A DNA stretch of 17,177 bases from a virus (taxonomy: Duplodnaviria; Heunggongvirae; Uroviricota; Caudoviricetes). The translations under genes were made by a program, and so were the position numbers. The notes under the pieces are model-generated. The model was not told the DNA's origin, searched no databases, and saw only the letters and a program-made list of their open reading frames with translations. The DNA lies in the IMG/VR virus record IMGVR_UViG_2671181056_000008, positions 1 to 17,177 of that record; one strand, given 5' to 3'. Of the stretch, positions 1,295-17,177 are shown one piece after another; within the stretch, counting starts at the first letter, position 1, and each line of letters opens with the position of its first letter.

Positions 1295-1295
1295 T

Positions 1296-1320: not shown

Positions 1321-1331
1321 AATCAGTTCTC

Positions 1332-1721: not shown

Positions 1722-1737
1722 AGCGTTTTGCCCTCAA

Positions 1738-1757: not shown

Positions 1758-1843
1758 TACATGAAAGAAGCTCACTCAGTGCAACTGATCGGTACATAGC
1801 ACCAGACAAAGGAACGTTATTTTCTCGAACAAGAAAAGGTAGA

Positions 1844-1877
1844 AAACAAATTGTTTAAGGCCACAACTAGTGGCCTT
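1844..1877. repeat. 13-bp palindrome AAACAAATTGTTT followed by GC hairpin, copy 1 of a composite element
   Basis: Perfect palindrome 1844-1856; hairpin aaggccac (1857-1864) / gtggcctt (1870-1877), 5-nt loop. Near-identical element at 6964-6997. Confidence 0.6.
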
Positions 1878-1893
1878 AATGGAGAAGGGATGC

Positions 1894-3286: not shown

Positions 3287-3504
3287 TCGTCATCCTCATC
3301 CGAGTCATCCTCATCACAGGATGAGAGTAGTGGGTTAGTCATTCGCCCTACTTGAGTGGCGTAGCAACGCCGACAGAGATTGCGCAGCACACTGTATATT
3401 TCGAACATCTCGGTTCGTTCATCGCCAACATCAAGCTCAGATGCTATAGCGTGGCATTCAGTCGCGAGAGCCGATATTTTCTGAAATAACTCTGCTTTAT
3501 TCAC
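3283..3504 (-). CDS. hypothetical small protein, 73 aa, acidic C-terminus (CDEDDSDEDDE)
   Basis: GTG start at 3504 preceded by AGGAG with 7-nt spacer; overlaps the DUF551-like gene stop. The 93-aa ORF in the track has no ribosome-binding site at its ATG. Confidence 0.35.
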   Translation of the reverse strand: MNKAELFQKISALATECHAIASELDVGDERTEMFEIYSVLRNLCRRCYATQVGRMTNPLLSSCDEDDSDEDDE

Positions 3505-4072
3505 TCTTCGACTCCTGCGGAGGTTCTGGTAGCGGCATCCAGTGAGTTGCTTGCTCAATACCATTACCCGGCTTAATCGTTACATCTCCGCGCCGAAAGG
3601 TGATTCCGGTATAGCGTGCGGAGCATATTAGCGGTTCAACCAGAGAGCTATCGAAATTCACCGAAATAAGCACGTTCTGGCCCTTTTCAGGCATTCGCTC
3701 ACTACAGCTTATCCAACCATCCGGAGTTACCGGATGGGGTCCAGCGAACTCGGGAATGTCAGGACCTTTTCTGATAGCTTTAGCCAGATCCAGCGGGTCA
3801 TCGTAAAGCCAGTCGCCAGTTTGTGGGTGATTTGCTTCTGCAAGCTGCGCAGCCCATTCAAGACCATCTTTTTGACCTTGGAGATAATCAAGCGGCAACT
3901 CTTCATGATTACTTGCAGGTTCTGCACTATCAGCTTCGCGCCGCTTCTGTAGCTCTGCTGCCATCGCTCTCACGACTTCAACTGGTGCCCTTGCAGCAAA
4001 CTCTATGTTGGTGATCAGCTCATTAAGATATTGCTCGCCTGGATACTGTTTCTTATCGGTTATAGTGGTCAT
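3497..4072 (-). CDS. DUF551-like phage protein
   Basis: 191 aa from ATG at 4072 (GGAGAGTGAT upstream); C-terminal segment with THWMPLPEPP resembles the DUF551 signature as recalled. Confidence 0.6.
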   Translation of the reverse strand: MTTITDKKQYPGEQYLNELITNIEFAARAPVEVVRAMAAELQKRREADSAEPASNHEELPLDYLQGQKDGLEWAAQLAEANHPQTGDWLYDDPLDLAKAIRKGPDIPEFAGPHPVTPDGWISCSERMPEKGQNVLISVNFDSSLVEPLICSARYTGITFRRGDVTIKPGNGIEQATHWMPLPEPPQESKSE

Positions 4073-4073
4073 A

Positions 4074-4460
4074 TCACTCTCCTTTTCCCTGAAGCATAGC
4101 AGCGCGGCAGGCATTCCAGCCTCTCACCTCTGCAATAGCGGCAACAGCATCAACCGCGTACATGCTAAGAGGATTAGGCATTGGTTTTTCTTCCGGTACT
4201 ACTGGAACGGGTGGAGCGGCGTAGACCTCAATAATTCCATTATCAATAGGCCATTCTCCATCCTTGAGGTAGTCACTTGTGCCGTCAACTTGCTGTTCTG
4301 CAATGTGGAATGCACCTATTGGTTTTGCTTCCAGCGATGCCAGAGCAATTCGTGCCAGTTCTTCCGCTTCTTCTGCTGGCAGTACAACGTTGCTACCAGG
4401 TCCGTATGTTTCGCGCCACTGTTTGATTGTCAGTAGTCGCTCTTTGGTAATAGTGGTCAT
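4074..4460 (-). CDS. hypothetical protein, 128 aa
   Basis: ATG at 4460 preceded by AAGGAG; C-terminus ends KGE immediately before the next gene's start. Confidence 0.6.
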   Translation of the reverse strand: MTTITKERLLTIKQWRETYGPGSNVVLPAEEAEELARIALASLEAKPIGAFHIAEQQVDGTSDYLKDGEWPIDNGIIEVYAAPPVPVVPEEKPMPNPLSMYAVDAVAAIAEVRGWNACRAAMLQGKGE

Positions 4461-4470
4461 GTGTTACTCC

Positions 4471-4734
4471 TTAACCCGCAGTGCTTTCAACTGATGAGGG
4501 GAACAAAATCCTTTCATCAAATCCGGCATTCATATCATGGACAGCAACACACCAATCCATCGACGAACGATTATCAAGAGCCTCCATGATTTCATCCATG
4601 CGGCGCAGGTCATACAGGTAAATGCTTTTATCGCCAATGGTGTAAAAACCAATTTTTTTCGGTGATGGGCAGCGATCAAGAACGTCCTGTAATTCGTTCA
4701 ACCATGCCCGTTCTTTTTTTGTTAAAGTTGCCAT
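4471..4734 (-). CDS. hypothetical protein, 87 aa
   Basis: ATG at 4734 (MATLTKKERAW) one nt after the upstream stop, preceded by GGAGAGTGAT. Confidence 0.55.
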   Translation of the reverse strand: MATLTKKERAWLNELQDVLDRCPSPKKIGFYTIGDKSIYLYDLRRMDEIMEALDNRSSMDWCVAVHDMNAGFDERILFPSSVESTAG

Positions 4735-4735
4735 A

Positions 4736-5257
4736 TCACTCTCCTTTGATGCGAATGCCTGCTGCAATGCTGTTTATGATGCTGTCAGTGCATGGAGTAG
4801 AAAGCTGGGCATCTCCAGCAATTTTCATGACCTCAACATCCGCATATCGAATACCGAGGTGTATCAGACCGGCTATACCTGACTTAAGTCGAACATTTTC
4901 CATAAACAGATCTTTTTCCCGCTGTTTAGCGGCTTCCAACTCCATCGACAATTTTTCCAACTGCTCTTTATGCTTCTTGTATTCCTGATACGCGTGCCAA
5001 GACTGACCTTTGCGCACACTATCAGTGATATCAGCAACCTGCTCCGGTGTTAGCGTGGTCAGTGGCTGTGCTGGAAAAATCATCACTTTCCCGGCATCCC
5101 AATCAAAACCCGCCTGAATTGACTGAACCTCAACTGATGGTGTTGAACCGATGCGACCAGGCGAATGAACAACGATCGTTACATCCATATCGCGACGATG
5201 GCTGTGGTTGTTGGACAAAATACGATTCACCAACTCAGAAAATTTGGAAAATTTCAT
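4736..5257 (-). CDS. hypothetical protein with Ea22-like C-terminus (AAGIRIKGE)
   Basis: 173 aa from ATG at 5257 (AAGAGGGA upstream, ATGA overlap with the upstream stop); last 9 residues identical to those of the 5579..6109 product. Confidence 0.6.
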
Positions 5258-5577
5258 GCTGATCCCTCTTTCTCTCCCCGGATAATTCTGTTGCACACAT
5301 CCACACACTCGTCGCAGATGAAAACGGCGTCCCCAGCAATTAACTTTTTGACGGCGTACTGGGATTTGTTGCAGAAGCTGCAACAAAGTGTTCGCCTGAC
5401 TGATAAGGATGGAGCGCCAGATGTCAGCCGCTCCATATCGTTCTTGCGACGCAATATCACACGGCTGAACTCAACCAGTTTCTCCGGGGATATCTCCTCC
5501 TCCGTAGCAAGCGCCTCTAATCGTTCGAGTATGTGGAAGGCTTTTTTCTGGGTAATTGCAGAATGCGATGTGGTCAT
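5254..5577 (-). CDS. small protein with C-terminal ClpX-type C4 zinc-binding domain
   Basis: 107 aa; [38 protein letters not shown] closely matches the ClpX N-terminal zinc-binding domain (CSFCGKSQ...RKLIAG...YICDECVDLCNDIIREE) with all four Cys; ATG at 5577 behind GGAGAGTGAG. Confidence 0.75.
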
Positions 5578-5578
5578 C

Positions 5579-6109
5579 TCACTCTCCTTTGATGCGAATG
5601 CCAGCGGCGCGGGAATCATTCCATCGCTTTACTTCTTCACGAATTACGTCAATGCATTCTTTCGAATCCATTAGGTAATCTTCATCAAAAAGACGTTCCT
5701 GTTCGTTTTCTATCGCAACAATGATTGCTTCAACTAACTTTTGTGCCTGAGAATCACTTTCTAACTCTGCTATGCGCTTACTTCCATCCGAGATAACGCC
5801 CTCGTAATACTCACGCTGCTCGTTGAGTTTTGATTTTGCCAACTCCAGTTGTTTTGTTAGTTCCGCAATACGGCAAACATCGTTGATACGCGTTTCCTCT
5901 AATGCGTTGATCTCATCCAGTAGTGCCAGCACGGTTTCTGGTCCGGCCAGAAATTTGAAGGCGTTGAGGGCATCAATATCAACACCGCTATCTTTAAGTT
6001 CCTGTTCACTTAACAAGTCATCATCAGCTGGCAACATTAACAGGCGTTCCATTGCTGGAATTGCACGTTCCGCCACCTCACGCAGTGCCTGGTAATTAAT
6101 TTCGCTCAC
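5579..6109 (-). CDS. Ead/Ea22-like family protein
   Basis: 176 aa; GTG start at 6109 behind GGAGG; MSEIN N-terminus, [27 protein letters not shown] block and AGIRIKGE C-terminus match lambda Ea22-like proteins as recalled (unverified). Confidence 0.65.
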
Positions 6110-6350
6110 TGGCTGCCTCCTGCTTTTCTGCCTTCAACACCATGCGAGAACCATCATCCAGCTCCCACACTATCTCACCACCTTCAGCCATGACCAGTTG
6201 CCACACCAATTGAGCAGCCTCATTGGTAACATCACGACCTGGATCATTGCCAACGCGCATACGTCCACCTTCAACATCGCGCATTTTTGCCAGCATGATA
6301 GTTTTTGATAGCGGTGAAAAACCAAGCTGTAGTCGTGCTGAATTACTCAC
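6096..6350 (-). CDS. hypothetical protein, 84 aa
   Basis: GTG start overlapping the upstream TGA (GTGA), preceded by GGAGG at 6-nt spacing. Confidence 0.5.
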   Translation of the reverse strand: MSNSARLQLGFSPLSKTIMLAKMRDVEGGRMRVGNDPGRDVTNEAAQLVWQLVMAEGGEIVWELDDGSRMVLKAEKQEAASERN

Positions 6351-6889
6351 TGGTTGCCTCCTTTGCGAAGCTGGGCAGCAAAGTCAACTAACCACTCAGT
6401 CATTTCAACCTTCCCTACCAGGTCTGAACCAGGGTGCATACAGCAATCACTCTGCGCCGCTTTGAAATCCTTATACTCATATTCTTGGGCCACCAGATTT
6501 TTTGCAGCTTCTATAGCAGCATCCACCCCCTGCGCACGTACTTCAGCCAGAAAAGCATCGGTGGCTGGAGTCTCCGTTAATTCGCTAACCCAATTATCTC
6601 CGTGTTCCTCGGCACACATCGCATCGAATGCTCGCTCAGATTCTTTCAGGGCTGCATTCTCCGCCGCTAATGCGTCTCTCTGCGCCCGCAACTTCTCAAT
6701 TTCGGCAGCCATGTAGTAACCAACCATAGCGAAGACGGCAAAAGAGTTGTCTGCCTCATCAGGCGACACTGAGGCCATTAGCAGACCATCGTAATAATCG
6801 TGACTCCCATTGGTGATCGCCACCTCATAGGAGTCGTGGTTCTCACGCTTGTGAATGAGAACTACGGGGTTTTCGATTTTGTTACTCAT
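6347..6889 (-). CDS. hypothetical protein, 180 aa
   Basis: ATG at 6889 preceded by AAGAGAAAAACAC, a leader shared with three other genes; first gene after the 6964-6997 element. Confidence 0.6.
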   Translation of the reverse strand: MSNKIENPVVLIHKRENHDSYEVAITNGSHDYYDGLLMASVSPDEADNSFAVFAMVGYYMAAEIEKLRAQRDALAAENAALKESERAFDAMCAEEHGDNWVSELTETPATDAFLAEVRAQGVDAAIEAAKNLVAQEYEYKDFKAAQSDCCMHPGSDLVGKVEMTEWLVDFAAQLRKGGNQ

Positions 6890-6963
6890 GTGTTTTTCTC
6901 TTCTTTGCTGTTACATAAGCACTACCAAGTGCTGGTTTATTTTCACAAATAAGAAAATGTAGA

Positions 6964-6997
6964 AAACAATTTATTTAAGGCCACAACTTATGGCCTT
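6964..6997. repeat. composite element copy 2: degenerate palindrome AAACAATTTATTT plus GC hairpin
   Basis: Hairpin aaggcca (6977-6983) / tggcctt (6991-6997), 7-nt loop; about 85 percent identical to 1841-1880 over roughly 45 bp. Confidence 0.6.
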
Positions 6998-7027
6998 TAT
7001 TTATTCATGCCGAAGGATTTGTAGCGT

Positions 7028-7408
7028 CTAATTGCCGTATAAAATGGGGTGAGGTGCTTGCCAGTAGGCTCCACCGGTCCATGTGAACCCCATGCGAATA
7101 AGAGTGTTTATTGCGGCTTTGGTAGACTCCGATTCGACACTGGCTTTACGAAACTCTTGAACCTCTTTCGCCAACCTGTATGTAATTGTGCAGGGGACGA
7201 TTGCAGCCCAGCCTTTCTCATGACTGTTAATGACCATCTGGATGTGACCATCCAGAATAGGTTGATTAGACATGTTATTGAAAATGTCTGCCTGTTTTTG
7301 AATGTGAAGAAAAAGCCTTGCCAGCTCCATTTGCTCACTACGAGACAAGGGATTATCAAGAGGGCTTTTTGCAAAAGCGGCTATACGCTGTGCGTCAATG
7401 CCAAACAT
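7028..7408 (-). CDS. hypothetical protein, 126 aa
   Basis: ATG overlaps the upstream stop by one nt (TGATG); no family recognised. Confidence 0.55.
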   Translation of the reverse strand: MFGIDAQRIAAFAKSPLDNPLSRSEQMELARLFLHIQKQADIFNNMSNQPILDGHIQMVINSHEKGWAAIVPCTITYRLAKEVQEFRKASVESESTKAAINTLIRMGFTWTGGAYWQAPHPILYGN

Positions 7409-8112
7409 CAGCGCACCTCACCATCTTTATGGCTGGAGTTAACTTCCGCCATTAAATGTCTGACGTAATCGACAAGAGAGCCACCTGGTGGAATCTGGCA
7501 TTCCTCAACTAACTGGAAGTAGATATCCGCAGCATTACGTGTATTGCTACCCGCGCATATTCTTTCTTCCCGAAGTGCATGAAGCTCGTTGATCAAACGG
7601 TCACACTCTCCGTTACGCTGATCCACAACAGCCTCAAGTTCTGCGACGCGTTCACCTGGCGTCTTACCTTCTTCGCGTTGGATGGTAACGACGAAATCGC
7701 CAATTGCAGGGACGTTGTAATCCAGCTCAAGGTAGTTTTTGGCACCGCTGCGGACGAACTCACCCGCGAACATGGTGGCGAACATCTCAGAGGCCATTGT
7801 GCTGTTGAAAAGTGACTCCAGATCTAACGGAGTCCCGGCAGCCAGAGCCTCTTTTGCTGTATCCATTGTATCCATGAACCGATCAAACTCATTAGCGCGC
7901 TTTTCCAGGTCTTTCCATTGCTCGCTCCAACGTTTGGCAATGAAGTCTATGAATGTTTTCGCGGATTCATCAAAATCCCCCTCAAACTTAACGATGCCTT
8001 TATCAATAATGATCTGGCCTACCGCATCCTCTGCATAACCTTTCAATGTAAACTTGAAAGGAAAATCAGAATGGCCTGTGACGTTAAAATGCTCTAACTG
8101 GAGGTTGTTCAT
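7408..8112 (-). CDS. hypothetical protein, 234 aa
   Basis: ATG at 8112 preceded by AAGAGAAAAACAT; no family recognised. Confidence 0.6.
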   Translation of the reverse strand: MNNLQLEHFNVTGHSDFPFKFTLKGYAEDAVGQIIIDKGIVKFEGDFDESAKTFIDFIAKRWSEQWKDLEKRANEFDRFMDTMDTAKEALAAGTPLDLESLFNSTMASEMFATMFAGEFVRSGAKNYLELDYNVPAIGDFVVTIQREEGKTPGERVAELEAVVDQRNGECDRLINELHALREERICAGSNTRNAADIYFQLVEECQIPPGGSLVDYVRHLMAEVNSSHKDGEVR

Positions 8113-8173
8113 ATGTTTTTCTCTTATCGTTTAGTTATTACATTCTTACACAAATTAAGTAAGTATTTACCTA

Positions 8174-9859
8174 TCATTTAACGCGTTTGAAAACGTATAC
8201 GCTGACTGTGATCCCTGTGTCTTCAAACTCGTTGGTAAACGACTTCCCTCTGGCATAAACGTAATTATCCATCGTCATCCAGTCCAGTATTGGCGCAGTG
8301 CCCGGCAATACTGCTACAAGACGCCCGCCGACTTTCAGATGCCCCAGCGCAGCCAGCGTGTGCTCTCTATGACGACCAAGCGAGTACGGCGGGTTCATAA
8401 CGATTTTGTCGAACTGATAACCTGCGTTGTCCTCAGACCACTTTATGAAGTCGCAGCAAATCGTGTTCGTATACCCTTTTCCACGCAGGATATCAGCGAA
8501 GAGAGGTGCGATTTCTATGCAGGTAACATCTTCCAGATCGGCGTTAATATAGGCCAGAAGATCCCCACGTCCGGCTTGAGGCTCCAACAGCTTCTCACCA
8601 GGCTTCAATTCAGTGGCTCTGGCAACGTACTCAGCAATCAAGCGTGGGGTAGGGTAGAACTGGTGTGATTTTGTATCCGGTATTAAACCGGTAGCCACAA
8701 TCGTATTTAGCGTATGGCCGATCTCATACGGGAACTGCCAGTGCTTTTTCTCCTGCACGCCGCCAATGAAGCTCAGTGTGCGCTCAAGCTCTTCCACCTG
8801 CGACTTCTGGAGAGCTGAATCAGAGAAGTACCATACGCCTTTGTCTTTGCTCAATCGCCCGTCACGAAGCGCAGTGCGAACCGGCACGGAGATCGTCTTC
8901 TGGATTAACCCGAACTGCTTTGGTGCCCGTGTTTTTGGCGCAGTTCGGCATGGCGCGGGGATTGCAGCAGGCATACTGTAAGCCAGCACCTCATTCAACT
9001 TCCAGGCCACGTCAGGATGTATTTCAAAGTGAACGTTGCCGTTCTTGAACATCTTCACGCGCATCAGATTTCCATCGACGTTCATCCAGTCACCGGTCTG
9101 GCAGTCGTTTGCCCGATACGCAGCTGATAGCACCTCAGCAGTGCGGTTGATGGTAATAAATTCTTTGTGCGCGAAGAAATGAAGCAAGACACGCAGATCG
9201 TCGATGTAGTCCTCTTTGCGATAGTTCACGCTAACGCTGTCACGCCAGAAATCAGAAATGCAGTCAGCGATTATCAGACGCTCGCTGAAACCGTTTGTCT
9301 TATTTGTCTTGTGCGCAGGACTCAGCGCCTTAAACAAGCCATACACGCGCTCAGAGAGATATTTGTGCCTGTCATTCAGCAAATTAAGCATCGTTGGTAT
9401 GACCGTTTCTGCTTTGAACTCCGGTACACCAACGAACTCTTTAACCTTCATCTGATAGCCGGTTCTGTCAGTTTTGATGACTTCCTGCTTGCCCTCGATA
9501 AATAGCTCACGCCACTCGTCGCGACGGGAAGCTGGCATGATCAGCAGAACGTTAGTCATATCCGTAACCTTCCTCCAGTACTCGGCCCAAATATTCTGTT
9601 TCACCCATTCCAGATCGACGTTATCCAGCCAGACTCGATTCAAACGTGAGCGATCTTCATCTGGTCGGTGGTTTAGTCGAAGCAGGCGATTAATCATGTT
9701 GTGGCGTTCATCGCCATAAACGAAGTCGTGTACCTGATACATGAAGGAGATCTCTTTCTCGCACTCGGCCACAATTTCGTGGATGACGTTCATTTCCTGT
9801 CGATAGTCGATAGCAGTGTTTGAGCTGGCATCGCCCATGATGGAAAGGGCTGTATTCAT
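8174..9859 (-). CDS. two-domain protein with C-terminal N6-adenine DNA methyltransferase domain
   Basis: 561 aa; FYPTP, then SAM-binding EPQAGRGDLL, then NPPY about 70 residues later (gamma-like motif order), only about 55 residues after NPPY; N-terminal 400 aa unassigned. Confidence 0.85.
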   Translation of the reverse strand: MNTALSIMGDASSNTAIDYRQEMNVIHEIVAECEKEISFMYQVHDFVYGDERHNMINRLLRLNHRPDEDRSRLNRVWLDNVDLEWVKQNIWAEYWRKVTDMTNVLLIMPASRRDEWRELFIEGKQEVIKTDRTGYQMKVKEFVGVPEFKAETVIPTMLNLLNDRHKYLSERVYGLFKALSPAHKTNKTNGFSERLIIADCISDFWRDSVSVNYRKEDYIDDLRVLLHFFAHKEFITINRTAEVLSAAYRANDCQTGDWMNVDGNLMRVKMFKNGNVHFEIHPDVAWKLNEVLAYSMPAAIPAPCRTAPKTRAPKQFGLIQKTISVPVRTALRDGRLSKDKGVWYFSDSALQKSQVEELERTLSFIGGVQEKKHWQFPYEIGHTLNTIVATGLIPDTKSHQFYPTPRLIAEYVARATELKPGEKLLEPQAGRGDLLAYINADLEDVTCIEIAPLFADILRGKGYTNTICCDFIKWSEDNAGYQFDKIVMNPPYSLGRHREHTLAALGHLKVGGRLVAVLPGTAPILDWMTMDNYVYARGKSFTNEFEDTGITVSVYVFKRVK

Positions 9860-9962
9860 AATTGCACCATTAAGAAATGATTTGTTTAATGATGCAATTA
9901 TTTCAAAAATAAAAAGGTGCTAAATAGAAATTAACAGGCAATACTTAAAATAAAGGCATTGA

Positions 9963-10864
9963 CTAATCATACTTGGATGTATTTATAACCAGGACTTTAT
10001 TTGTATATAGTTTTTTTACATTCCATGTAACATTACTTGAATACCATTCACCATTATATATTTGGTTTCCCGTTGCGCCTGTCATTGTTACGTATACAGG
10101 TCTGTCGTAAGGTGTTCGTCTATAGTTATATACTCCAACCATTGCAGGCATTATCGCACACGGGTATCCCATATTTATGGTAAATTGAGGATTTGTAATA
10201 GTGATAATCTCTGCATCAAGGGGCATCATCTCACCGTGATATACCATTTTACCTGCGCTATTATACATGGCAATACCATATCCTGAATGTGGTAACACCA
10301 TATCAGAAAAAGCATAAACTGTTATCGTTCCGGGGTTTCCTCCAACCTGATTCAGTCTGAGAACATTATACCCATCTCTAAATTCATGAACGAACATCAT
10401 ATTCGCCTTATTACTGCTTTTTATAAAGAAAAAACATGATTTGTTCGACGGTATTGAAGTCTTAAAAACAGAACCTTTAGACGTGGACATTGTCCCCCTA
10501 TTAATCAAATTTTGCGGTGTAAATTCTGGACTCATCCACACATTACCATTTGACTGAGTAATTGACATCCCGAACATTATTGTTATCCCCAATATGTATA
10601 TATATAAGATCCAAGTCCCTTGTATAAATTTGACCAACTTACTGTATTGCCGTTAATAGTGATAGTTGGTGTAGGTATATTTACATGGTTATCGTTATTT
10701 AAAGGCATCAATGAGCACACAGCATGTAATGATTTGCCAGGTGGTGGATTTGGGTAAGTCTTAGAGCCTGACGTGGTTGTAAATCGATCAAGAAAAAAAA
10801 TAGGAGTAAGGAAGCCGGTAACGTTAACTCCCTTATTATTGTAGATCCCTGTACCGTATGCCAT
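9963..10864 (-). pseudogene. AT-rich gene split into two frames at a (TA)5 tract
   Basis: Frame A (10583..10864, 93 aa) has a good ribosome-binding site; frame B (9963..10637) continues 200+ aa from a TTG. Frames differ by one nt and the (TA)5 tract at 10597-10606 lies in the overlap; removing one TA fuses them. Confidence 0.4.
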
Positions 10865-10890
10865 TTTTCATCCTTGTTTTTATCAACATA

Positions 10891-10914
10891 ATATGGCCGA
10901 TCATGCGGCCATAT
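10891..10914. terminator. inverted repeat ATATGGCCG-N6-CGGCCATAT, candidate terminator
   Basis: 9-bp perfect stem with 6-nt loop, 4 nt after the 10919 stop; followed on the minus strand by a T-rich stretch. Confidence 0.45.
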
Positions 10915-10918
10915 CAGA

Positions 10919-11488
10919 TCAATTAGAGCTTTGAAAGGCTTTGTGTGGCTGTGTTGCGAGGTTATGTCGATGGCTTAACTCACGCATCATGTCTTCAAGG
11001 CGACTCTTTGTGTCGTCGAGTTGGTCAGCCATTGCTCCTAAAAGCTGACGAACTACCATCGGATCGTCGCTGTTTAGTGATGGCATTTTATAACCCGCCT
11101 GAGAAGACATCAGATTGAATGCTGACATCAACATCGTTAGAGAGGATTTAAGCCCGGCAATTTCACGATCTTTGCTGGCAATAATCGTCTCACTTTTGTT
11201 ACTGTCATGAGTTCCTTGAGTCTCGATCACCATATCCAAAGTCTCTTGCAACTTATCAGCTCTCTGTTTTTCAGCAAGATAATGAACACCGAAATGATGT
11301 GCTAAAGCTACAACCTGAGTTGGCTCTTCAAAGGTGGACTCAAAATTAAGTGCTGTAACCACTCTCTCAAAAATGGAAACGTCTTCTATTCCTCGAAGAA
11401 TGGCTAACATTTTGACAAGTTCATTAGCATCCATTTCTTCGAATAGGGCGTTTTGTTCATCAGCTATTGCTTTGCATTTCTCGCACAT
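10919..11488 (-). CDS. hypothetical protein, 189 aa
   Basis: ATG at 11488 preceded by AAGGAAAACAT; leader carries the palindrome at 11507-11519. Confidence 0.6.
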   Translation of the reverse strand: MCEKCKAIADEQNALFEEMDANELVKMLAILRGIEDVSIFERVVTALNFESTFEEPTQVVALAHHFGVHYLAEKQRADKLQETLDMVIETQGTHDSNKSETIIASKDREIAGLKSSLTMLMSAFNLMSSQAGYKMPSLNSDDPMVVRQLLGAMADQLDDTKSRLEDMMRELSHRHNLATQPHKAFQSSN

Positions 11489-11506
11489 ATGTTTTCCTTA
11501 ATGCTT

Positions 11507-11522
11507 AAACAAGTTGTTTTCT
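11507..11522. promoter_or_regulatory. palindrome AAACAAGTTGTTT (operator-like), copy 3
   Basis: Perfect 13-bp palindrome 19 nt upstream of the 11488 start; the 16-mer aaacaagttgttttct is identical to 12236-12251. Confidence 0.5.
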
Positions 11523-11627
11523 TATTGGCTTTATTGTGATGTGGCATAAAAGGGGAGCAAGCTAAACGTAAAGGTGCAAACTCTCTATTTCGGTCAACGA
11601 AACACAATGGCCATTTGACCCTTGTCA

Positions 11628-11786
11628 TTAACACGTTGCTTTACGGACTAGCGGATAAGCGAAGTAGATCGCCAGACCAATGAGGACGCCATCAGAAATG
11701 ACAGACATCATCTTTCCCGTAAAATCCACCAACACCGCCATCACCAGAAGAGCAATGACGGTCACAAGCCGGAATCTCTCAAGCAT
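11628..11786 (-). CDS. small hydrophobic peptide, 52 aa, two predicted TM helices (not in ORF track)
   Basis: ATG at 11786 overlaps the TerB-like stop (TAATG); hand translation gives MLERFRLVTVIALLVMAVLVDFTGKMMSVISDGVLIGLAIYFAYPLVRKATC, stop at 11628-11630. Confidence 0.4.
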   Translation of the reverse strand: MLERFRLVTVIALLVMAVLVDFTGKMMSVISDGVLIGLAIYFAYPLVRKATC

Positions 11787-12211
11787 TAGAGATAAGCATC
11801 CAGTGACAACTGAAGCGCCTGGGCGATCTTTTTCAGCGCCTGCTCTTCTGGTTCATCAATGCCGTCTTGGTCGGCAATATCAAGGCACAGACAAAGTACA
11901 TCTACTGCATCATCAGTCCCGGCCACATCCGCCAGCTCACGTAAAGCCTGGGCATTAGCACGGCGCGGTGAGGCTTCGTATTGAGCGCGGATATTGGCGC
12001 TCATCTGGGCTATCTCACCAGCAAAAGGAGAAAATGCAGGCAGAGCTGCAATTGTTTTCTCAAGAATGGAAATTTCTTTTGCATCGCATGTACCGTTGGC
12101 ATAGGAGATCATGTACCCACCCCACACGGTGGCTTCAACCGCATCACGGTTCTCCATTTTTTTGACTTCGATAACTGCTTTACGAGTTTTCTTTTTGAAG
12201 AAACCTAACAT
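11786..12211 (-). CDS. TerB-like domain protein
   Basis: 141 aa; MLGFFKKK N-terminus and C-terminal DIADQDGIDEPEEQALKKIAQALQL resemble tellurite-resistance TerB as recalled; ATG behind AAGGAAAACAC. Confidence 0.6.
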   Translation of the reverse strand: MLGFFKKKTRKAVIEVKKMENRDAVEATVWGGYMISYANGTCDAKEISILEKTIAALPAFSPFAGEIAQMSANIRAQYEASPRRANAQALRELADVAGTDDAVDVLCLCLDIADQDGIDEPEEQALKKIAQALQLSLDAYL

Positions 12212-12235
12212 GTGTTTTCCTTTTGTTATTGGTCA

Positions 12236-12251
12236 AAACAAGTTGTTTTCT
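12236..12251. promoter_or_regulatory. palindrome AAACAAGTTGTTT (operator-like), copy 4
   Basis: Perfect 13-bp palindrome 25 nt upstream of the TerB-like start; same 16-mer as copy 3. Confidence 0.5.
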
Positions 12252-12304
12252 AGTTAAATAAATTGCTTACGCAAAGACGGTCAATGCATATGCACTAACA
12301 ACCG

Positions 12305-12493
12305 TCAGAAATAACCAAGTACCGAACCGACTGGAAAAATAAAAATCCCAACTACACGAGCCAAGGTCATGCCAGCCTGAAACTGGAGATCGCCAGAGCA
12401 AACAAGTTTTATAATGTTCGATACCCAACCGGCGGCCATGAGGGCAAGAATTGCCAGCCAAATTTTTCCAAAGTGATTTGAAAACCAGTTCAT
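12305..12493 (-). CDS. small membrane protein, 62 aa, two predicted TM helices
   Basis: Two hydrophobic segments (IWLAILALMAAGWV, VVGIFIFPVGSVLGYF); ATG overlaps the stop of the 12490..12741 frame (ATGA) and lies 9 nt after the 12503 stop. Confidence 0.5.
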   Translation of the reverse strand: MNWFSNHFGKIWLAILALMAAGWVSNIIKLVCSGDLQFQAGMTLARVVGIFIFPVGSVLGYF

Positions 12494-12502
12494 ACAACCG
12501 CC

Positions 12503-12997
12503 TTAGTCACAGCATGATCCTGAGTAACTGGATGAACTTGAGGTATCGCATCCACCGTCATCCCATCCAGAGTGACAGGTCGCTCTACTGGAGTGGTGGT
12601 AATTGTCGTCGACGGAGGTGTGGTGATGGATGAATCCGGCATCAAAAGGCTCTGACCGGCTGGAACGGCTACCGTCGCCAGTGAAACTATAATGAGAACG
12701 TAGGCCATTGGTTTCAGCCTCTTTCTTTGAAAATTTTCCATTCGAACTGTCCTTGTTGTTTTTCTCCTTCACTAAAGGCCGTGCATTTTTCGCTTCGCGT
12801 GAAGAACCAGAGGCAACAATCGCCCACACGTTCGCAACAACTGACGCTTGATTATCTAAACGTTCATTCAGCAACCGAACGGTAGTCTCTAGTTCATCAA
12901 GGCGTGACATAACACGACCGCTAAATAATTCGGCCAAAATTTGACGTAAAGAACGAGGACGTTTAGTTACAGAAGTGAAATAGGTTTGACGTGCCAT
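12503..12997 (-). CDS. hypothetical protein, 165 aa, with a second signal-peptide ORF nested out of frame
   Basis: ATG at 12997 behind GGAG; N-terminal 60 aa protein-like, C-terminal half Ser-rich low complexity and overlapped by 12490..12741 (signal-peptide-like MAYVLIIVSLATVAVPAGQSLL). Which frame is expressed is unresolved. Confidence 0.45.
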   Translation of the reverse strand: MARQTYFTSVTKRPRSLRQILAELFSGRVMSRLDELETTVRLLNERLDNQASVVANVWAIVASGSSREAKNARPLVKEKNNKDSSNGKFSKKEAETNGLRSHYSFTGDGSRSSRSEPFDAGFIHHHTSVDDNYHHSSRATCHSGWDDGGCDTSSSSSYSGSCCD

Positions 12998-13026
12998 GTG
13001 GACTCCATCCAGTGTCATAAAGAGTT

Positions 13027-13048
13027 GCGGCTGGCAATCGCCAGCCGC
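13027..13048. terminator. GC-rich hairpin, candidate terminator or attenuator
   Basis: 9-bp stem gcggctggc / gccagccgc with 4-nt loop, immediately upstream of the 12503..12997 gene; U-tract weak on the minus strand, better (CTTTCTCGTT) on the plus strand. Confidence 0.4.
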
Positions 13049-13142
13049 CTTTCTCGTTCCATCCTGGAACTGTGTCTTACCGACACATTGTCATCCTGAC
13101 GCCGATAAGATACATGATTTATAATGATAGGTAAACACTTAC

Positions 13143-13736
13143 TTACTGTTTGTTATAAACAAAACCAATATCTTTCTTGTGAGGCATATCTGCTGCTGAA
13201 AAAGCTGCGATCTTCGCGAGTCGATCACATATTTCATTTTCACGATGCCCGGCGTGACCTTTAACCCACTTCCAGCGAACATTATGTCGACTTGCGGCCT
13301 CATCCAGACGCTTCCACAGATCAACATTCTTTACCGGTTTTTTGTCAGAAGTCATCCATCCATTGCGTTTCCACCATTTCATCCACTGTGTCATGCCGTT
13401 TTTCAGATACTGGCTATCAGAGTGCAAAATAACGTTGCATGGATATTTCAAACGCTCCAGCCCGATAAGTGCCCCCATCATCTCCATGCGGTTATTGGTG
13501 GTGCTATGAAAACCATCTGAGAACTCGCGTTCCTCGCCACGATACTGGAGAACGATACCGTAACCGCCCGGGCCACCCGGATTTTTAAGGCAAGAGCCAT
13601 CACTAAAGATTTTCACGGTTTTAAGCTGGGGATTGAACTCTACGACAGGCGTTGTGGGATTGGTGCGGGGAGAATTTTTGTTTTTGTCTTTTTTGCGAGT
13701 TTTTGCTTGCGGTCGGGCTGGTGTCTTCGTTGTCAT
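13143..13736 (-). CDS. rnhA: ribonuclease HI homologue with basic N-terminal extension
   Basis: 197 aa from ATG at 13736 (AGGAG upstream); core [17 protein letters not shown]...TNNRMEMMG...HSDSQY...[11 protein letters not shown] aligns closely to E. coli RnhA; about 40-residue Lys/Arg/Pro-rich N-terminal extension. Confidence 0.9.
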
Positions 13737-14317
13737 ATAAACTCCTGAATCAAGCGCCGCGCCGATTTTTCCTCGCGCGTGCGCACACGCGTGCGTGTTA
13801 ATAATTATTAAAATAAACAAATTACTTCCCAGAACAGGTTTTTATAAACCTGAACTGAACGAACGAAGTGAGTGAAGTTCACCTCGAACGAAGTGAGAGG
13901 TTGTCTTTTCAGGTAATACTCTCCCAGGGAGGTGAGTATAAAATTCCTCACCAACCTGGTCGTTTCATAACCTGAAAAGCTATGGTCTAAGTCTACTGCC
14001 AGCTTAGACTTGGGAAGTTATGGATGACAGCACCCCAGAACCGAGATCTTCCCACACTTTATGAAGGGGAGTACTGGATTCAACCTCTCGAAACACCCCA
14101 GACTCGACAATCATAAAGTGACCCTTGTCTCCGCTCACTTTGGTTCCCCCTTCCCCGACACCTAAACGGCACCGGTTCTACGCTGGTAGTGAGCTTTTTT
14201 AAACCTGACGCCAGTGACGCTTACCCCCACCCATCAGGTCGAGTCTCCAGTCTACGACTGGAAACTATCAGATCTTAGCACTTACAATTCATCTTATGAA
14301 TAGTTTGTACTTATCTA
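13737..14317. other. 580-bp ORF-free structured region (candidate ncRNA, origin or regulatory hub)
   Basis: No ORF of 60 aa or more; 25-nt alternating purine-pyrimidine tract (13774-13798), 14-bp AT palindrome (13798-13811), 13-bp direct repeat (13860-13872, 13885-13897), several hairpins, repeated CACCCCAGA, two AGATCT sites. Confidence 0.4.
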
Positions 14318-14548
14318 TCATTTCGATTGATTATTTTCTCGACCATGTAGTTGAACATTCAAGGCAAACACCTCGTTGATCAACTCACCTAAAAGCTGTT
14401 CAACAAGTTCGCGATGCTCCCCAAGATGCAAGCACTTAATTGCCCACTCGTACAAGTTGAAAGCCTGCTCACGATCTTTCATCATTTCACGAGCCTGGGC
14501 CAGAAAATCGCTGTCTACGAGCGCAACGACATTAGTCGGGTATGACAT
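14318..14548 (-). CDS. hypothetical protein, 76 aa
   Basis: ATG at 14548 (MSYPTN) preceded by AAGGAA; the upstream ATG at 14572 has no ribosome-binding site. Confidence 0.5.
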   Translation of the reverse strand: MSYPTNVVALVDSDFLAQAREMMKDREQAFNLYEWAIKCLHLGEHRELVEQLLGELINEVFALNVQLHGRENNQSK

Positions 14549-14652
14549 GTTGGTTTCCTTAAAGTGGTTCATAAAATCGATTTTAAAGCGTCTGGGAAGG
14601 GGGTCTAGTGGATTCTGTAGTGATGTTCAGGTCTGGAGTCTCTGATACAAAA

Positions 14653-14714
14653 CAGCCTGCTTCCGTATATTAATAATTAATATGTAGTTATTTATATATA
14701 TACAGAAGCAGGCT
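14653..14714. terminator. long inverted repeat with AT-rich palindromic loop, candidate terminator plus promoter
   Basis: 10-bp stem agcctgcttc (14653-14662) / gaagcaggct (14705-14714); loop holds a 17-bp palindrome ATATTAAT-A-ATTAATAT and a (TA)5 tract; followed on the minus strand by GTTTTGTATC. Confidence 0.45.
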
Positions 14715-14735
14715 AATTACAGACGCCAGAACAAA

Positions 14736-15329
14736 CTAAGCAGCCTTCTTTGATGGTCTTTTTTTCCTGATCACATTCGCAGGATCATACCCTCCCAGAC
14801 TTTTCATGACGTCCAAAGGGATCTTGCTTATAGAGTGCCCAGCGTCCTGACAGAATCCTCGAAAAACAACGAGCATACTGCCACCGGGGTTGATGTTTAC
14901 TTCTACCTGACCCAAATTGACGTCAGGCTCGACAAACGCTACGCGGCCACCAGACAGAATAATCGTCTCATTCGCATACTCTGTTGCACGCTCATACCAC
15001 TTTGTATCGAGGGATTGAGGAATTAGCATCACTGTAGTAACTCCGCGAGCCTGCTCACGTATAGCAGCATCAATCCAGGGGGAGATTTTGGAGTAGGGTG
15101 GATTGAGGAAGGCAATTGTACCTGGCTGTCCCCATTCAGATTTCAAAGCATCACGCTCAATGCCTATGAAATTAGGCAGCTTTGCGTTGTCCTTGTTGCA
15201 GGCAACGTCAACATCAAATGTCACTCCAAGATAACGTTGAATGGCAGAAAACAGCCAATCAGGTGTTCTCCAGAGGTCACGAAGAGAGTTGTCGCGCTTT
15301 CGCTGTTTGATTTTTTCGGCTGCAATCAT
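14736..15329 (-). CDS. phage-type DNA N6-adenine methyltransferase (Dam family)
   Basis: 197 aa; WRTPDWLF near the N-terminus and NPPYS catalytic motif, typical of the small phage Dam family. Confidence 0.85.
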   Translation of the reverse strand: MIAAEKIKQRKRDNSLRDLWRTPDWLFSAIQRYLGVTFDVDVACNKDNAKLPNFIGIERDALKSEWGQPGTIAFLNPPYSKISPWIDAAIREQARGVTTVMLIPQSLDTKWYERATEYANETIILSGGRVAFVEPDVNLGQVEVNINPGGSMLVVFRGFCQDAGHSISKIPLDVMKSLGGYDPANVIRKKRPSKKAA

Positions 15330-15396
15330 CTTCTTTCTCGATAGGTAAGTAAATACCTATTTTTGCATTTGATTTTATGTATGGCAATCAAATAAA

Positions 15397-15471
15397 ACGC
15401 GCCAGAAATGCGAACAAGAAGCTCTCTGGCGCGTTTTTTTGGTGCTGGGTATGGGTTATCTTACCCAGCAC
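15397..15471. terminator. tandem hairpins: bidirectional terminator candidate plus a second GC hairpin
   Basis: Stem acgcgccag (15397-15405) / ctggcgcgt (15426-15434) followed by T7 on the plus strand and by TTTTATTTGATT on the minus strand; second hairpin gtgctgggta (15442-15451) / tacccagcac (15462-15471). Confidence 0.5.
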
Positions 15472-15511
15472 TATAAAGCTCTCTATGGGCTTTATTTTCA
15501 GTAGGGGAACG

Positions 15512-16321
15512 TCATCCAATAGTGTACTCCGCGACAAACTTCTTAACGATCGGTGATTCTTCGTTCAATGTTAGATTTCCACCGTCTCTAACGGCAATTC
15601 CTGTAGCTGGAAATACAGCCATCATTTGCCCAGCCTGAGTTGACGCAGTGTTAAGCGGATACGGTTTTTCTGGATTGCTCATTAAAGCAATCTTAATACT
15701 ATTACTTGTAGCCTTCTTTTCTGTAAGAAGGTGTCTCATGGAAATTACCGTGTAAACACTAATATCTGGACCTCCGCTAAACCAATTAAGAAGGTTTAAT
15801 ATCTTATCCTTCGCTTTGACAGGCGCGTTTTCGTAAGCGTCTAAGAAAATATCTTTTTCTAAGCCTGCTTTATTGAAAAACGAATCATCTTTATCACTTA
15901 AAGTAAAACTAGGACCTCTTGCAGCACGAGTTTTTTTATTTGTATTGCTATCATTTGACTGTTGAACTTTTAATTCATCATTAACCTCAACACAATCTTC
16001 AACCTCAATGATCCCCAACTGTTCTGGCTCATTTTCGGCAGCTTCACCACTTTCAGCGTTAATTACGTTTATAGGCTCATGCGCTAACTCCAACTCATTT
16101 AAAGCAGAGCTGAAATCACCTGCTTTTTCTTCATTGAACAGTTCTTCGGCAACATCATCAGAACTCATGGCTACGCCAGCATCGAGGCCGAGAAGCAGAT
16201 CGTCAATATCATCAGTATTTTCAACCTGTGCAGCTTTTTTTACTGGTTCATCAAGTGATTGCAACATGGCTGTCAGCTCATCCAGATCATCATTTGTCAT
16301 TACATTTTCAACCGAACTCAT
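15512..16321 (-). CDS. hypothetical protein, 269 aa, strongly acidic N-terminal half
   Basis: ATG at 16321 behind GGAG; first 125 residues carry about 38 Asp/Glu against 3 Lys; C-terminal half is neutral to basic. Confidence 0.6.
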   Translation of the reverse strand: MSSVENVMTNDDLDELTAMLQSLDEPVKKAAQVENTDDIDDLLLGLDAGVAMSSDDVAEELFNEEKAGDFSSALNELELAHEPINVINAESGEAAENEPEQLGIIEVEDCVEVNDELKVQQSNDSNTNKKTRAARGPSFTLSDKDDSFFNKAGLEKDIFLDAYENAPVKAKDKILNLLNWFSGGPDISVYTVISMRHLLTEKKATSNSIKIALMSNPEKPYPLNTASTQAGQMMAVFPATGIAVRDGGNLTLNEESPIVKKFVAEYTIG

Positions 16322-16442
16322 GTAAGTCTCCTTCTGTTTAGTTGCATTTGCGTTTCGATGGCTACATTTTGACTAAACCTATCAGGCGGAAAAGTATTAA
16401 ATACAGGCAGGAAATGATTGAAAGGCGACTGTTCTTTAAAAG

Positions 16443-16480
16443 AAAGCCTGCTTCAAACTCTCTTTAAAGCAGGCTTTTGT
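16443..16480. terminator. rho-independent terminator after the exonuclease gene
   Basis: About 13-bp stem (agcctgcttcaaa / tttaaagcaggct, one mismatch) with 5-nt loop, T-rich on both sides; begins 2 nt after the 16482 stop. Confidence 0.6.
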
Positions 16481-16481
16481 T

Positions 16482-17039
16482 TTACACAATTTCAGAGGGT
16501 AATTTAAAAAATCCGTATTTATTACGTGCCTTAAAGAAGCATTGCATCATTAAGTTTGTGTCATATAAGGCACTATGTGCTTTGGCATGATCGTATATAA
16601 AGCCAAGAGAGAAGGCCAATTCTTCAAGGCGAGGACGTTTACCGTCTTCTGTGGCCCACAATCCCGATAACATAGTATCTATAACGGGAACGTCTGGCAG
16701 TCTTACTCCATACCCTGAAAACTCGTGTCTAATAAATGGTATATCAAACGCTTCGCCGTTATGAGCAACCCACGCACTACATGCCTCCATATAAGCGCCA
16801 ATTTCGCTAGCATGATTTGACAACAAAGGTTCAGCTGCGAGCTGTTCTAATGAAATGCCATGAACGGCTTGAGCTTTCGGATCTATGTTTCTGCGAGGGT
16901 TAAAACGCATCTCCAGACTATCAATATGTCTCTGTGTCTCCAGTTCATAGCGGGTAATTGCGATTTCAATAATTTTATGACCAGCAAGGAAATCCAGTCC
17001 CGTAGACTCGATATCGATGCCTGCAACAATCGTTGTCAT
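16482..17039 (-). CDS. DnaQ-like 3'-5' exonuclease (DEDDh family)
   Basis: 185 aa; Exo I GIDIESTGLD, Exo II HNGEAFDIPF, Exo III HSALYD; ATG at 17039 behind AAGGAG. Confidence 0.85.
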   Translation of the reverse strand: MTTIVAGIDIESTGLDFLAGHKIIEIAITRYELETQRHIDSLEMRFNPRRNIDPKAQAVHGISLEQLAAEPLLSNHASEIGAYMEACSAWVAHNGEAFDIPFIRHEFSGYGVRLPDVPVIDTMLSGLWATEDGKRPRLEELAFSLGFIYDHAKAHSALYDTNLMMQCFFKARNKYGFFKLPSEIV

Positions 17040-17177
17040 CAGAACTCCTTACAACTTCTTAGCGCCCTTAAGTAGTGCGCTACGTACAAATTGAGCCGCT
17101 TTTTTCAAAGTTTCTTCACTGGTTTCACAGACAATCTGAAGTGGTCAACAAAAACTGGCCACCGAGTTAGAGTTTTT

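Follow-up and report, generated by a model that had tools for sequence, protein, structure and literature searches.

The question raised by this locus is what occupies a 580-bp gap (positions 13737-14317) between the gene for RNase HI (rnhA) and a gene for a 76-amino-acid protein (orf76) in IMG/VR virus record IMGVR_UViG_2671181056_000008, of which positions 1 to 17,177 were analysed and are referred to below as the window. The gap is very probably a gene for a structured RNA encoded on the minus strand, and its properties are best explained by an undescribed, stand-alone RNA of approximately 450 nt (about 14266 to about 13815) that belongs to the core components of SSU5-type phage-plasmids. 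It is moderately likely that this RNA acts in trans, either as a folded RNA or as an RNA-protein complex.

The 651 bases around the gap are 100% identical to p09EL50, a replicon of E. coli O104:H4 str. 2009EL-2050, and 87-98% identical to phage SSU5, phage Cyrano, pHCM2 from Salmonella Typhi and several Klebsiella phages. A first-pass annotation of the window had spoken of an island; in view of these matches, the source element is a phage-plasmid of the SSU5/pHCM2 type. Every gene near the gap lies on the minus strand, as does the RNA, and the order along the direction of transcription is dam (14736-15329), orf76 (14318-14548), the 580-bp gap and rnhA (13143-13736). The non-coding stretch of the gap is present in 687 plasmids of PLSDB, carried by Klebsiella, Escherichia, Enterobacter, Salmonella, Citrobacter and Cronobacter, as well as in 12 phage records and in 232 of 5,426 complete E. 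coli genomes.

As the first-pass annotation had noticed, no open reading frame (ORF) of 60 amino acids or more lies wholly inside the gap, the sole exception being a TTG-start upstream extension of the rnhA frame (13143-13820); the rnhA start that is common to all lineages is the ATG at 13736, which is preceded by the Shine-Dalgarno sequence GGAG. Among the outcomes that this annotation had named as refuting was a lack of conservation of the repeats and hairpins in related islands, together with that of a discrete transcript; the gap proved to be more conserved than both of its flanking genes. Among 69 viral-contig loci recovered through RnhA, gap positions 75-576, counted in gene orientation, exhibit 86-92% identity at the DNA level, as compared with 74-81% for rnhA, orf76 and dam in the same lineages. 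For the RNA as a whole, the identity between such lineages ranges over 86-97%. When the 17-kb window was tiled against pSC7 of K. pneumoniae, only four 150-nt tiles exceeded an identity of 0.9, all of them in the RNA, and against pHCM2 the gap tiles ranked joint first with one other block. Judged from these comparisons, the gap is the best-conserved local sequence of these phage-plasmids. The conservation ends at a promoter on one side and at a U-rich tail on the other, as expected of a transcription unit. The parts of the predicted RNA gene, for the kind of RNA found in the window (type 1), are as follows.

14272-14300, minus strand: predicted sigma-70 promoter of the RNA gene, with -35 TTCATA (14300-14295), a 17-nt spacer and extended -10 TGcTAAGAT
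14280-14279 and 14277-14272, minus strand: TG and hexamer of the extended -10, with the predicted start at A14266 or G14265
14242-14266, minus strand: P1, the extreme 5' hairpin of the predicted transcript, from folding of type-1 loci
13824-14240, minus strand: structured RNA body, RNA positions 27-443, from three alignments
14240-14203, minus strand: P2, alignment-supported fold
14194-14189 with 14138-14133, minus strand: P3, enclosing P3a (14175-14155) and the G-rich GGGGAAGGGGGAACC (14156-14142)
14120-14055, minus strand: P5, alignment-supported fold
14081-14089, minus strand: 5' strand of pseudoknot PK1, GAGAGGUUG, in the apical region of P5, a perfect 9-bp complement of the 3' strand
14054-14011, minus strand: P6 and P6a, alignment-supported fold
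14009-13985, minus strand: P7, alignment-supported fold
13984-13966, minus strand: P7b, alignment-supported fold
13905-13979, minus strand: pseudoknot PK2, in which the P7b loop CUUUUCAGG (13979-13971) pairs with CCUGAAAAG (13913-13905) and spans P8, from sequence inspection and script
13959-13924, minus strand: P8, alignment-supported fold
13895-13903, minus strand: 3' strand of PK1, CAACCUCUC, pairing with GAGAGGUUG
13886-13864, minus strand: P9, alignment-supported fold
13857-13830, minus strand: P10, alignment-supported fold
13813-13829, minus strand: 3' end, with the closing strand GGAAGU followed by the tail AAUUUGUUUAUUUU, which is U-rich in every lineage and variable in sequence

The promoter was surveyed in 104 distinct type-1 sequences and located in 97 of them; the seven in which it was missed include six sequences of a divergent subtype, 1b, whose TAACAT lies beyond the search window. 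The -10 hexamer conforms to TAnnAT in 96 of the 97 (with forms including TAAAAT, TAAGAT, TAGAAT and TACAAT) and is TAAACT in the remaining one, so that T-12, A-11 and T-7 are invariant while the middle positions vary. A TG at -15/-14 accompanies the hexamer in 70 of the 97 promoters, and a -35 element TT(T/C)A at a spacing of 17 nt is found in 95. A conserved, putative sigma-70 promoter thus appears to lie directly upstream of the conserved block, which is the arrangement looked for in a stand-alone RNA gene. The first element to be transcribed would be the hairpin P1, which occurs in 21 different sequences among the type-1 loci; all of these form a hairpin of 6-10 bp beginning at +2, with free energies from -2.8 to -15.7 kcal/mol, and the sequence of the stem differs among several lineages with its pairing preserved.

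Downstream of P1, the RNA is predicted to fold into at least 11 helices and two pseudoknots. In an alignment of 39 type-1 sequences (A2, RNAalifold), the fold comprises 122 pairs and 99.8% of the alignment cells can pair, a share that drops to 38-49% on sliding the partners by one to three columns; compensatory double changes are seen in eight pairs, and the covariation score exceeds those of all 500 shuffles. More divergent relatives were gained through a search for Orf76 homologues and their contigs, and through a two-block DNA pattern run over metagenomes. These comprise subtype 1b, whose RNA is approximately 68% identical and which comes from Enterobacter and Cronobacter associated with plants and soil, and two further divergent RNAs, the intermediate L220 and the variant L278 (such labels denote individual loci). 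With the divergent homologues included (alignment A3), 35 of 109 pairs are compensatory, as compared with 9.3 ± 2.3 in shuffles and 5-9 in slid controls; none of 500 shuffles reaches the observed count, and 97.8% of the cells pair. In a core alignment of 379 columns (A5), the compensatory pairs number 36 of 83, 98.8% of the cells pair versus 35-48% when slid, and the covariation score is 0.387 versus 0.217 in shuffled and at most 0.094 in slid alignments. An alignment of homologous loci in search of compensatory changes in the hairpins, which the first-pass annotation had proposed as a check, therefore found such pairs well above its shuffle and slide controls. L217 (Logan contig SRR8137545) seemed to be a divergent homologue and proved to be the E. 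coli-type locus in which T has replaced C almost throughout; it was discarded because it had been assembled from a bisulfite-converted library, and its gene calls are artefacts. Two short orf76 contigs, L280 and L281, were considered as transcript assemblies; L280 at least is a metagenomic scaffold, and both are uninformative as to transcripts.

The strand can be assigned from the fold itself. It contains approximately 14 G.U pairs, at which the opposite strand would have A.C mismatches, and these make the fold minus-strand-specific. The minus strand reaches a minimum free energy of -171 kcal/mol (z -5.2), the plus strand one of -140 kcal/mol.

Two long-range pairings, PK1 and PK2, cross other helices and are for this reason pseudoknots. 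PK1 is invariant in most lineages; L220 exhibits a swap of G-C to U-A, L218 a single U.U mismatch, and in L278 a base is missing from each strand (GAGAGGUG with CACCUCUC). PK2 was called by sequence inspection and script, not by a column-wise count; in type 1 all nine of its positions are paired, in L220 one base has been lost on each side (CUUUUAGG with CCUAAAAG, 8 of 8 paired), and subtype 1b carries a swap of A-U to U-A (UUUCUGG with CCAGAAA, 7 of 7 in L238), with two mismatches in L219.

Most of the features that had first drawn attention to the gap find a place in this fold. The repeats, palindromes and hairpins listed in the first-pass annotation were all recovered in place, namely a perfect alternating purine-pyrimidine run of 25 nt (13774-13798), a perfect 14-bp palindrome TTAATAATTATTAA (13798-13811), a direct repeat CGAACGAAGTGAG (13860-13872 and 13885-13897) on either side of GTGAAGTTCAC (13872-13882), hairpins at about 13988-14012 and about 14242-14266, the motif CACCCCAGA at 14031 and 14094, and AGATCT sites at 14044 and 14270. 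The hairpin it gave as 14254-14268 is P1 (14242-14266), and the one given as 13988-14012 is P7 (13985-14009); the direct repeat and its central palindrome form hairpin P9 and its flanks, and CACCCCAGA corresponds to the UCUGGGGUG strand in P5 and in P6a. Of the two AGATCT sites, one (14044) lies within the internal loop of P6; the other (14270) is upstream of the transcript and overlaps the -10 box. Neither the alternating tract nor the AT palindrome belongs to the RNA, both being situated in the short stretch that precedes rnhA. The alternating run is the longest in the window, and in 200 mononucleotide shuffles of the window the longest such run averaged 14.3 nt and never exceeded 21 nt.

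At the 3' end, the type-1 tail comes after a branched, A-U-rich closing structure and is probably a non-canonical intrinsic terminator. A terminator scan of the region left the type-1 3' end unscored, and the position of the end near 13815 is therefore approximate.

The RNA resembles no family that was searched. Rfam 15, whose 4,227 covariance models include GOLLD, ROOL, HEARO, OLE, raiA, group I and II introns, RNase P, tmRNA, 6S and riboswitches, gave no match anywhere in the window at gathering thresholds, so that the covariance-model search suggested at the outset was carried out and assigned the gap to no family; a permissive search of 13600-14700 yielded nothing better than a viral stem-loop, which scored 21.5 bits where the threshold is 56. 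ARAGORN identified no tRNA or tmRNA gene in the window, and a search of a full-text library found no mention of an RNA, an origin or a regulatory element at this locus. A host origin of the RNA was considered and rejected, as blastn (word size 11) against the 5,426 E. coli genomes matched phage-plasmids only and no chromosomal homologue. Among known RNAs, a loose group of large structured phage RNAs such as GOLLD and ROOL comes closest in kind, and the RNA is not a member of any of them. Like GOLLD, ROOL, HEARO, OLE and raiA, it is several hundred nucleotides long with many covarying helices and pseudoknots, and its unpaired nucleotides are strongly conserved; it is likewise a stand-alone gene on a mobile element, with no function known at the time of its finding. 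However, it matches none of these in sequence or structure, belongs to phage-plasmids of Enterobacteriaceae rather than to phages of Firmicutes or Actinobacteria, and exhibits a very narrow distribution, a fixed genomic slot and a fixed small-protein neighbour. In length, helix count and the presence of pseudoknots it is comparable to RNase P RNA, tmRNA and 6S RNA, and its conservation relative to neighbouring protein genes is similar to theirs and typical of RNAs that work as three-dimensional machines or with protein partners; unlike them, it has no Rfam or ARAGORN match and no chromosomal homologue in E. coli, and it is borne only by phage-plasmids.

Two further features bear on what the RNA may work with and on how its slot has evolved.

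14318-14548, minus strand: orf76, encoding an acidic helical protein of 76 amino acids, directly upstream of the RNA at every locus examined
L204:5389-5823 (K. pneumoniae pKSB1_9A_3, NZ_AP024176.1), also L205-L209: type-2 RNA of approximately 435 nt, in the slot between orf74 and rnhA

In types 1, 1b and 2, as in the variants L220 and L278, the RNA is preceded by a homologue of Orf76, and the family is confined to these phage-plasmids, with 61 clusters among 5.8 billion proteins. Pfam placed Orf76 in no family and returned no Rop hit, and an AlphaFold2 model consists of three helices at a pLDDT (predicted local distance difference test) of 71. The possibility of a Rop-like protein was rejected, as Foldseek gave no PDB match at E ≤ 0.001 and Rop was absent even from the weak matches. 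Compared with the window, pHCM2-like elements exhibit 95% nucleotide identity in the RNA and amino acid identities of 84% in Orf76 and 85% in Dam; for subtype 1b the corresponding values are 68%, 66% and 75%, and for type 2 the RNA is undetectable, with Orf76 at 50% and Dam at 70%. The divergence of the RNA thus tracks that of Orf76 rather than that of Dam, and Orf76 may tentatively be put forward as a partner of the RNA.

Type 2 was identified in 30 Klebsiella phage-plasmids of the pKpn/pCAV kind, which share the gene order and have an unrelated gap of 650 bp in the same slot. Its promoter (TTTACT, 17 nt, TATCAT) was the sole site of the surrounding 1 kb to be scored as promoter-like; it is followed by a covarying hairpin at the predicted start and a covarying fold of approximately 435 nt, and the 3' end is terminator-like, with a 7-bp stem, an 18-nt loop and then G and U7-8. 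Rfam gave no match at the type-2 locus, and searches by nhmmer profile and by a covariance model built on the type-1 domain of best support, with filters off, did not match type 2; the few 6-9-mers that the two types share are not colinear and were judged to be due to chance. The type-2 RNA is either a far-diverged homologue or a replacement, and it is found together with two different replicon clusters, 2469 and 711. As the RNA in this slot differs in sequence between sister lineages and agrees in size and layout, it may be lineage-specific. At L204:5390-5419, the type-2 5' hairpin is followed by U6 and received a terminator-like score; it may also terminate transcription of orf74 upstream or act as an early attenuator.

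It is plausible from these observations that RNA polymerase would start at the conserved sigma-70 promoter at 14300-14272 on the minus strand and produce, as an independent transcription unit, a transcript of approximately 450 nt from about 14266 to about 13815. The 5' hairpin would protect this RNA, the body would fold into its 11 or more helices joined by the two pseudoknots, and the U-rich tail would end it. The RNA and the 76-amino-acid gene upstream appear to be inherited as a pair, with exchangeable content downstream. The RNA would then accumulate as a stable, compact molecule and act in trans through its three-dimensional shape, presumably by binding a protein or another conserved macromolecule in the early DNA-metabolism programme of the phage-plasmid, for which the co-diverging Orf76 would be the first candidate.

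Several points weigh against this interpretation. The covariation comes mostly from a few divergent lineages (1b, L220 and L278) and therefore represents fewer independent events than the cell counts imply, and a structured single-stranded DNA element would give the same covariation, including G.T pairs. The type-1 3' end, being non-canonical as a terminator and unscored in the scan, makes read-through into rnhA possible, and the start, end and stability of the RNA are predictions. In addition, Orf76 is acidic and displays no RNA-binding signature, and a fast-evolving neighbourhood could by itself account for its co-divergence with the RNA.

Four other explanations of the gap were considered, as a leader of rnhA, a ColE1-like primer, an iteron origin or other DNA element, and a coding region, and none of them is supported. 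The first of these depends on the gene that follows the RNA and on the stretch in between.

13143-13736, minus strand: rnhA, RNase HI with a basic N-terminal extension (Pfam RNase_H, E = 1e-44), the usual yet dispensable neighbour
13737-13798, minus strand: alternating tract (13774-13798), CGCGAGG, an A-run, a GC-rich segment and GGAG, before the ATG at 13736
13798-13822, minus strand: variable A+T-rich spacer, including the palindrome TTAATAATTATTAA, whose length and sequence vary among lineages

It is improbable, though conceivable, that the RNA is a leader acting in cis, that is, the very long 5' untranslated region of the downstream operon, which would control read-through to rnhA and the genes beyond by attenuation, by riboswitch-like sensing or by processive antitermination. 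The RNA shares its orientation with rnhA, from which its 3' end is approximately 75 nt away, its 3' end is a weak terminator at best, which makes read-through plausible, and a regulator of the Rha/Ant type lies further downstream in SSU5, pHCM2 and the type-2 plasmids, recalling the c4-ant arrangement of phage P1. However, the gene downstream is not constant. In K. pneumoniae pSC7 (L211), the RNA and the GC tract are kept, and rnhA is reduced to eight codons and followed by two unknown ORFs; in Buttiauxella sp. WJP83 (L218), the RNA is followed by Gabija-like GajB and GajA on the opposite strand; in the subtype 1b loci and L278, ORFs for unknown proteins of 200 (range over loci, 200-222) amino acids or Tad2-like genes take the place of rnhA; and in the type-2 plasmids L207 and L208 an opposite-strand ORF adjoins the RNA. 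With the next gene on the opposite strand in L218, L207 and L208, there is nothing close to regulate in cis, and across the loci examined no constant, coherent same-strand gene was found downstream, such as a riboswitch or cis-acting leader would call for. The RNA is therefore independent of rnhA, and a separate promoter-like element lies between the two.

A lack of extended complementarity between the RNA and the rest of the plasmid also counts against a leader. When p09EL50 was searched for antisense targets over 108 kb of its 109,274-bp record, the longest matches were of 12-15 nt, which is at chance level, and exact 12-mers numbered six, against approximately six expected. A match of 14 of 15 positions inside repB was rejected as a target, because it is of the same sense as the repB mRNA and cannot pair with it. 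No extended complementarity to a transcript of the element itself, of the sort that marks antisense immunity or copy-control RNAs such as c4, CI, RNA I and CopA, is thus apparent, although pairing through short seeds may occur. The c4 RNA of P1/P7, the CI RNA of P4 and the CA RNA of N15 are similar in that they are borne by phage-plasmids, lie on the same strand upstream of a region that often holds a Rha/Ant-type regulator and come in lineage-specific sequence types, which recalls heteroimmunity. They are, however, RNAs of approximately 70-100 nt that act by short antisense pairing with nearby sites, whereas the RNA described here is of approximately 450 nt and pseudoknotted, with no complementary target detected on the plasmid.

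No greater likelihood is attached to a replication primer or R-loop origin of the ColE1 RNA II or T4 oriF type, in which the transcript would hybridise to its template and be trimmed by RNase H, its 3'-OH would prime phage or plasmid DNA synthesis, and the A+T-rich stretch might serve as the unwinding element. ColE1 RNA II is about 550 nt long, and the likeness extends to a length in the range of approximately 450-550 nt, a sigma-70 promoter that looks constitutive, an elaborate conserved fold and G-rich segments, the RNA having a skew (G-C)/(G+C) of +0.15; an A+T-rich spacer follows the RNA, the RNase HI gene is its commonest downstream neighbour and a gene for a small helical protein stands upstream. 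Of the known systems compared, this one offered the most tempting analogy, and several findings speak against it. Orf76 is not Rop-like, and the RNA persists where rnhA has been lost or replaced. The polymerase encoded by the element is of the DnaE type rather than Pol I (polA), with a DnaB-like helicase and a toprim protein encoded as well; the RepB replicon is located elsewhere, 17 kb away, and the same type-2 RNA accompanies both replicon clusters. An antisense unit of the RNA I type was sought and not found in the scan, with no T-run after the complement of P1, although a weak unit could escape it; no conserved antisense promoter or terminator was seen, and the sole plus-strand promoter-like site (14259-14288) faces away from the RNA. 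The U-rich tail and the terminator-like end of type 2 point to a released RNA.

It is very unlikely that the conserved sequence works as double- or single-stranded DNA with no functional RNA, for example as an iteron origin or packaging site, through a Z-DNA or cruciform structure, in single-strand initiation, or as a recombination anchor where two modules meet. Direct and inverted repeats are present, the Z-DNA-prone tract of 25 nt is longer than expected by chance, the RNA lies at the edge of a cargo hot spot, and folded single-stranded DNA tolerates G.T pairs as well. The first-pass annotation had left open a structured non-coding RNA, an iteron-type origin and a regulatory hub; the first of these is strongly supported by the conserved promoter, the strand-specific G.U pairs, the many compensatory changes and the two pseudoknots, and the second is not supported. 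A search for at least three regular direct repeats of approximately 17-22 bp beside an A+T-rich region and an initiator found only two-copy repeats of 12-14 nt; the two 13-nt direct repeats are both strands of RNA helices, and no initiator gene is adjacent, RepB being at a distance of 17 kb. The number and the spacing of the repeats thus both speak against an iteron origin, as does the missing initiator. Moreover, a promoter with the classic pattern of conservation stands exactly one hairpin upstream of the conserved block, the conservation is bounded by this promoter and the U-rich tail, and the alternating tract lies outside the block. The two long-range pseudoknot pairings covary, for which a duplex-DNA function or a simple recombination anchor would not select.

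That the conservation reflects coding for one or more small proteins is scarcely credible, since the only sizeable ORF in the sense orientation of the RNA, one of 44 amino acids (14138-14004, minus strand) that is intact in E. coli, Salmonella and Enterobacter lineages, annotated once as the hypothetical protein CYRAN_81 of phage Cyrano and fused in the same frame to an upstream gene in a Buttiauxella gaviniae remnant, spans less than one third of the conserved block, is broken by frameshifts or stops from indels of 1-2 nt in six lineages (L035, L059, L070, L218, L220 and L222), is unrelated at the amino acid level in subtype 1b and has its variable sites spread 4:3:4 over the three codon positions, so that the ORF was rejected as a gene on its broken frames and its codon-position spread, and the conserved small ORF that the first-pass annotation had named as a competing explanation does not account for the region.

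The last ~75 bp before rnhA are most likely a separate element, consisting of the promoter and leader of the downstream gene. A -10-like hexamer abuts the GC tract in every lineage, and the A+T-rich spacer probably supplies the -10 region of a weak promoter serving rnhA or whatever cargo lies downstream; a promoter scan left the spacer unscored. Of 78 distinct downstream sequences, 70 retain the alternation (a run of at least 14 nt; mode 25-26, range 6-29), with variation in the order and number of CA, CG and TG units, and the element stays in place where rnhA is truncated or replaced (L211, L218). The alternating tract is probably a GC-rich discriminator together with a 5' leader hairpin of rnhA; as the tract is Z-DNA-prone, it may also have a role as Z-DNA. 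On the other side of the RNA gene, one more motif was noted.

14300-14320, minus strand: TAAGTAC-centred motif, overlapping the end of orf76 (stop TGA 14318-14320), just upstream of the RNA promoter

This motif is kept in type 1 (as the palindrome GGTAAGTACTTACC in the pHCM2 lineage) and in type 2 (ATAAGTAA-TTA-TTTACTTAT), and similar sites, often palindromic, occur in at least five other intergenic regions of p09EL50 (at about 9629, 24560, 67138, 70660 and 86995 of the record). Possible roles for it are those of a shared operator and of a promoter element specific to the phage.

The cargo hot spot begins just after the RNA (L211:1-15810, L218:3895-6231, L214:3829-4916, L278:3598-3912 and L279:3431-3742). 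Depending on the lineage, it holds rnhA, a truncated rnhA with unknown ORFs, Gabija-like GajA/GajB or Tad2-like (anti-Thoeris) genes, and a type I restriction-modification system and a DUF262 gene lie further on, past the truncated rnhA and the unknown ORFs. In Buttiauxella gaviniae ATCC 51604 (L147:4830-6188, NZ_LXEP01000001.1), only the 3' two-thirds of the RNA remains, at 95% identity; the end of an ORF for an SbcD-like metallophosphoesterase of 387 amino acids is joined to it in frame, LysR and MFS genes follow, and the locus looks like a decayed phage-plasmid remnant with a deletion of approximately 16 kb. Two existing annotations within the RNA are doubtful: in SSU5 (L002, SSU5_090), the rnhA frame is given as 765 nt with its start inside the GC tract and the 3' region of the RNA, and in Cyrano (L004) CYRAN_81 is the non-conserved 44-amino-acid ORF.

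Elsewhere on the element, the map of p09EL50 includes, in addition to the replication genes named above, a ligase, a flap endonuclease, RecA and four tRNAs, together with nrdAB, thyA and a DHFR annotated as trimethoprim-resistant dfrA51. At window positions 1-1600 (p09EL50 28005-31296), host-like metG, for methionyl-tRNA synthetase, and apbC adjoin a gene for an S24 peptidase, and outside the window, at 25,778-27,322 of the p09EL50 record, there is another stretch of approximately 1.5 kb with no annotated gene.

Phage-plasmids of the SSU5/pHCM2 type are frequent in clinical Enterobacteriaceae, being found in 4% of complete E. coli genomes and in approximately 700 PLSDB plasmids, pHCM2 among them. 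Some of them bear blaCTX-M-15 (PMC3999498, PMC8085198). The most conserved local sequence of these elements would be an unannotated RNA with a complexity like that of RNase P RNA or tmRNA. Their annotation can be corrected accordingly, as RefSeq is empty under the RNA and the SSU5 rnhA extension and the small ORF of Cyrano are doubtful, and the RNA marks the conserved left border of a hot spot for defence and anti-defence genes. Large, pseudoknotted and hyper-conserved RNAs have often proved to be ribozymes, ligand sensors or the cores of RNA-protein machines, and since the elements of E. coli and Salmonella are easily manipulated, the RNA is directly testable. A bolder proposal, and a rather unlikely one at present, is that it represents a new class of large pseudoknotted RNA that forms an RNA-protein complex with Orf76 and is an essential, lineage-specific part of the SSU5-type life cycle. 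If so, the complex might, for example, set replication, copy number or superinfection compatibility, and the type-1 and type-2 versions would be specificity determinants for the coexistence or exclusion of related phage-plasmids.

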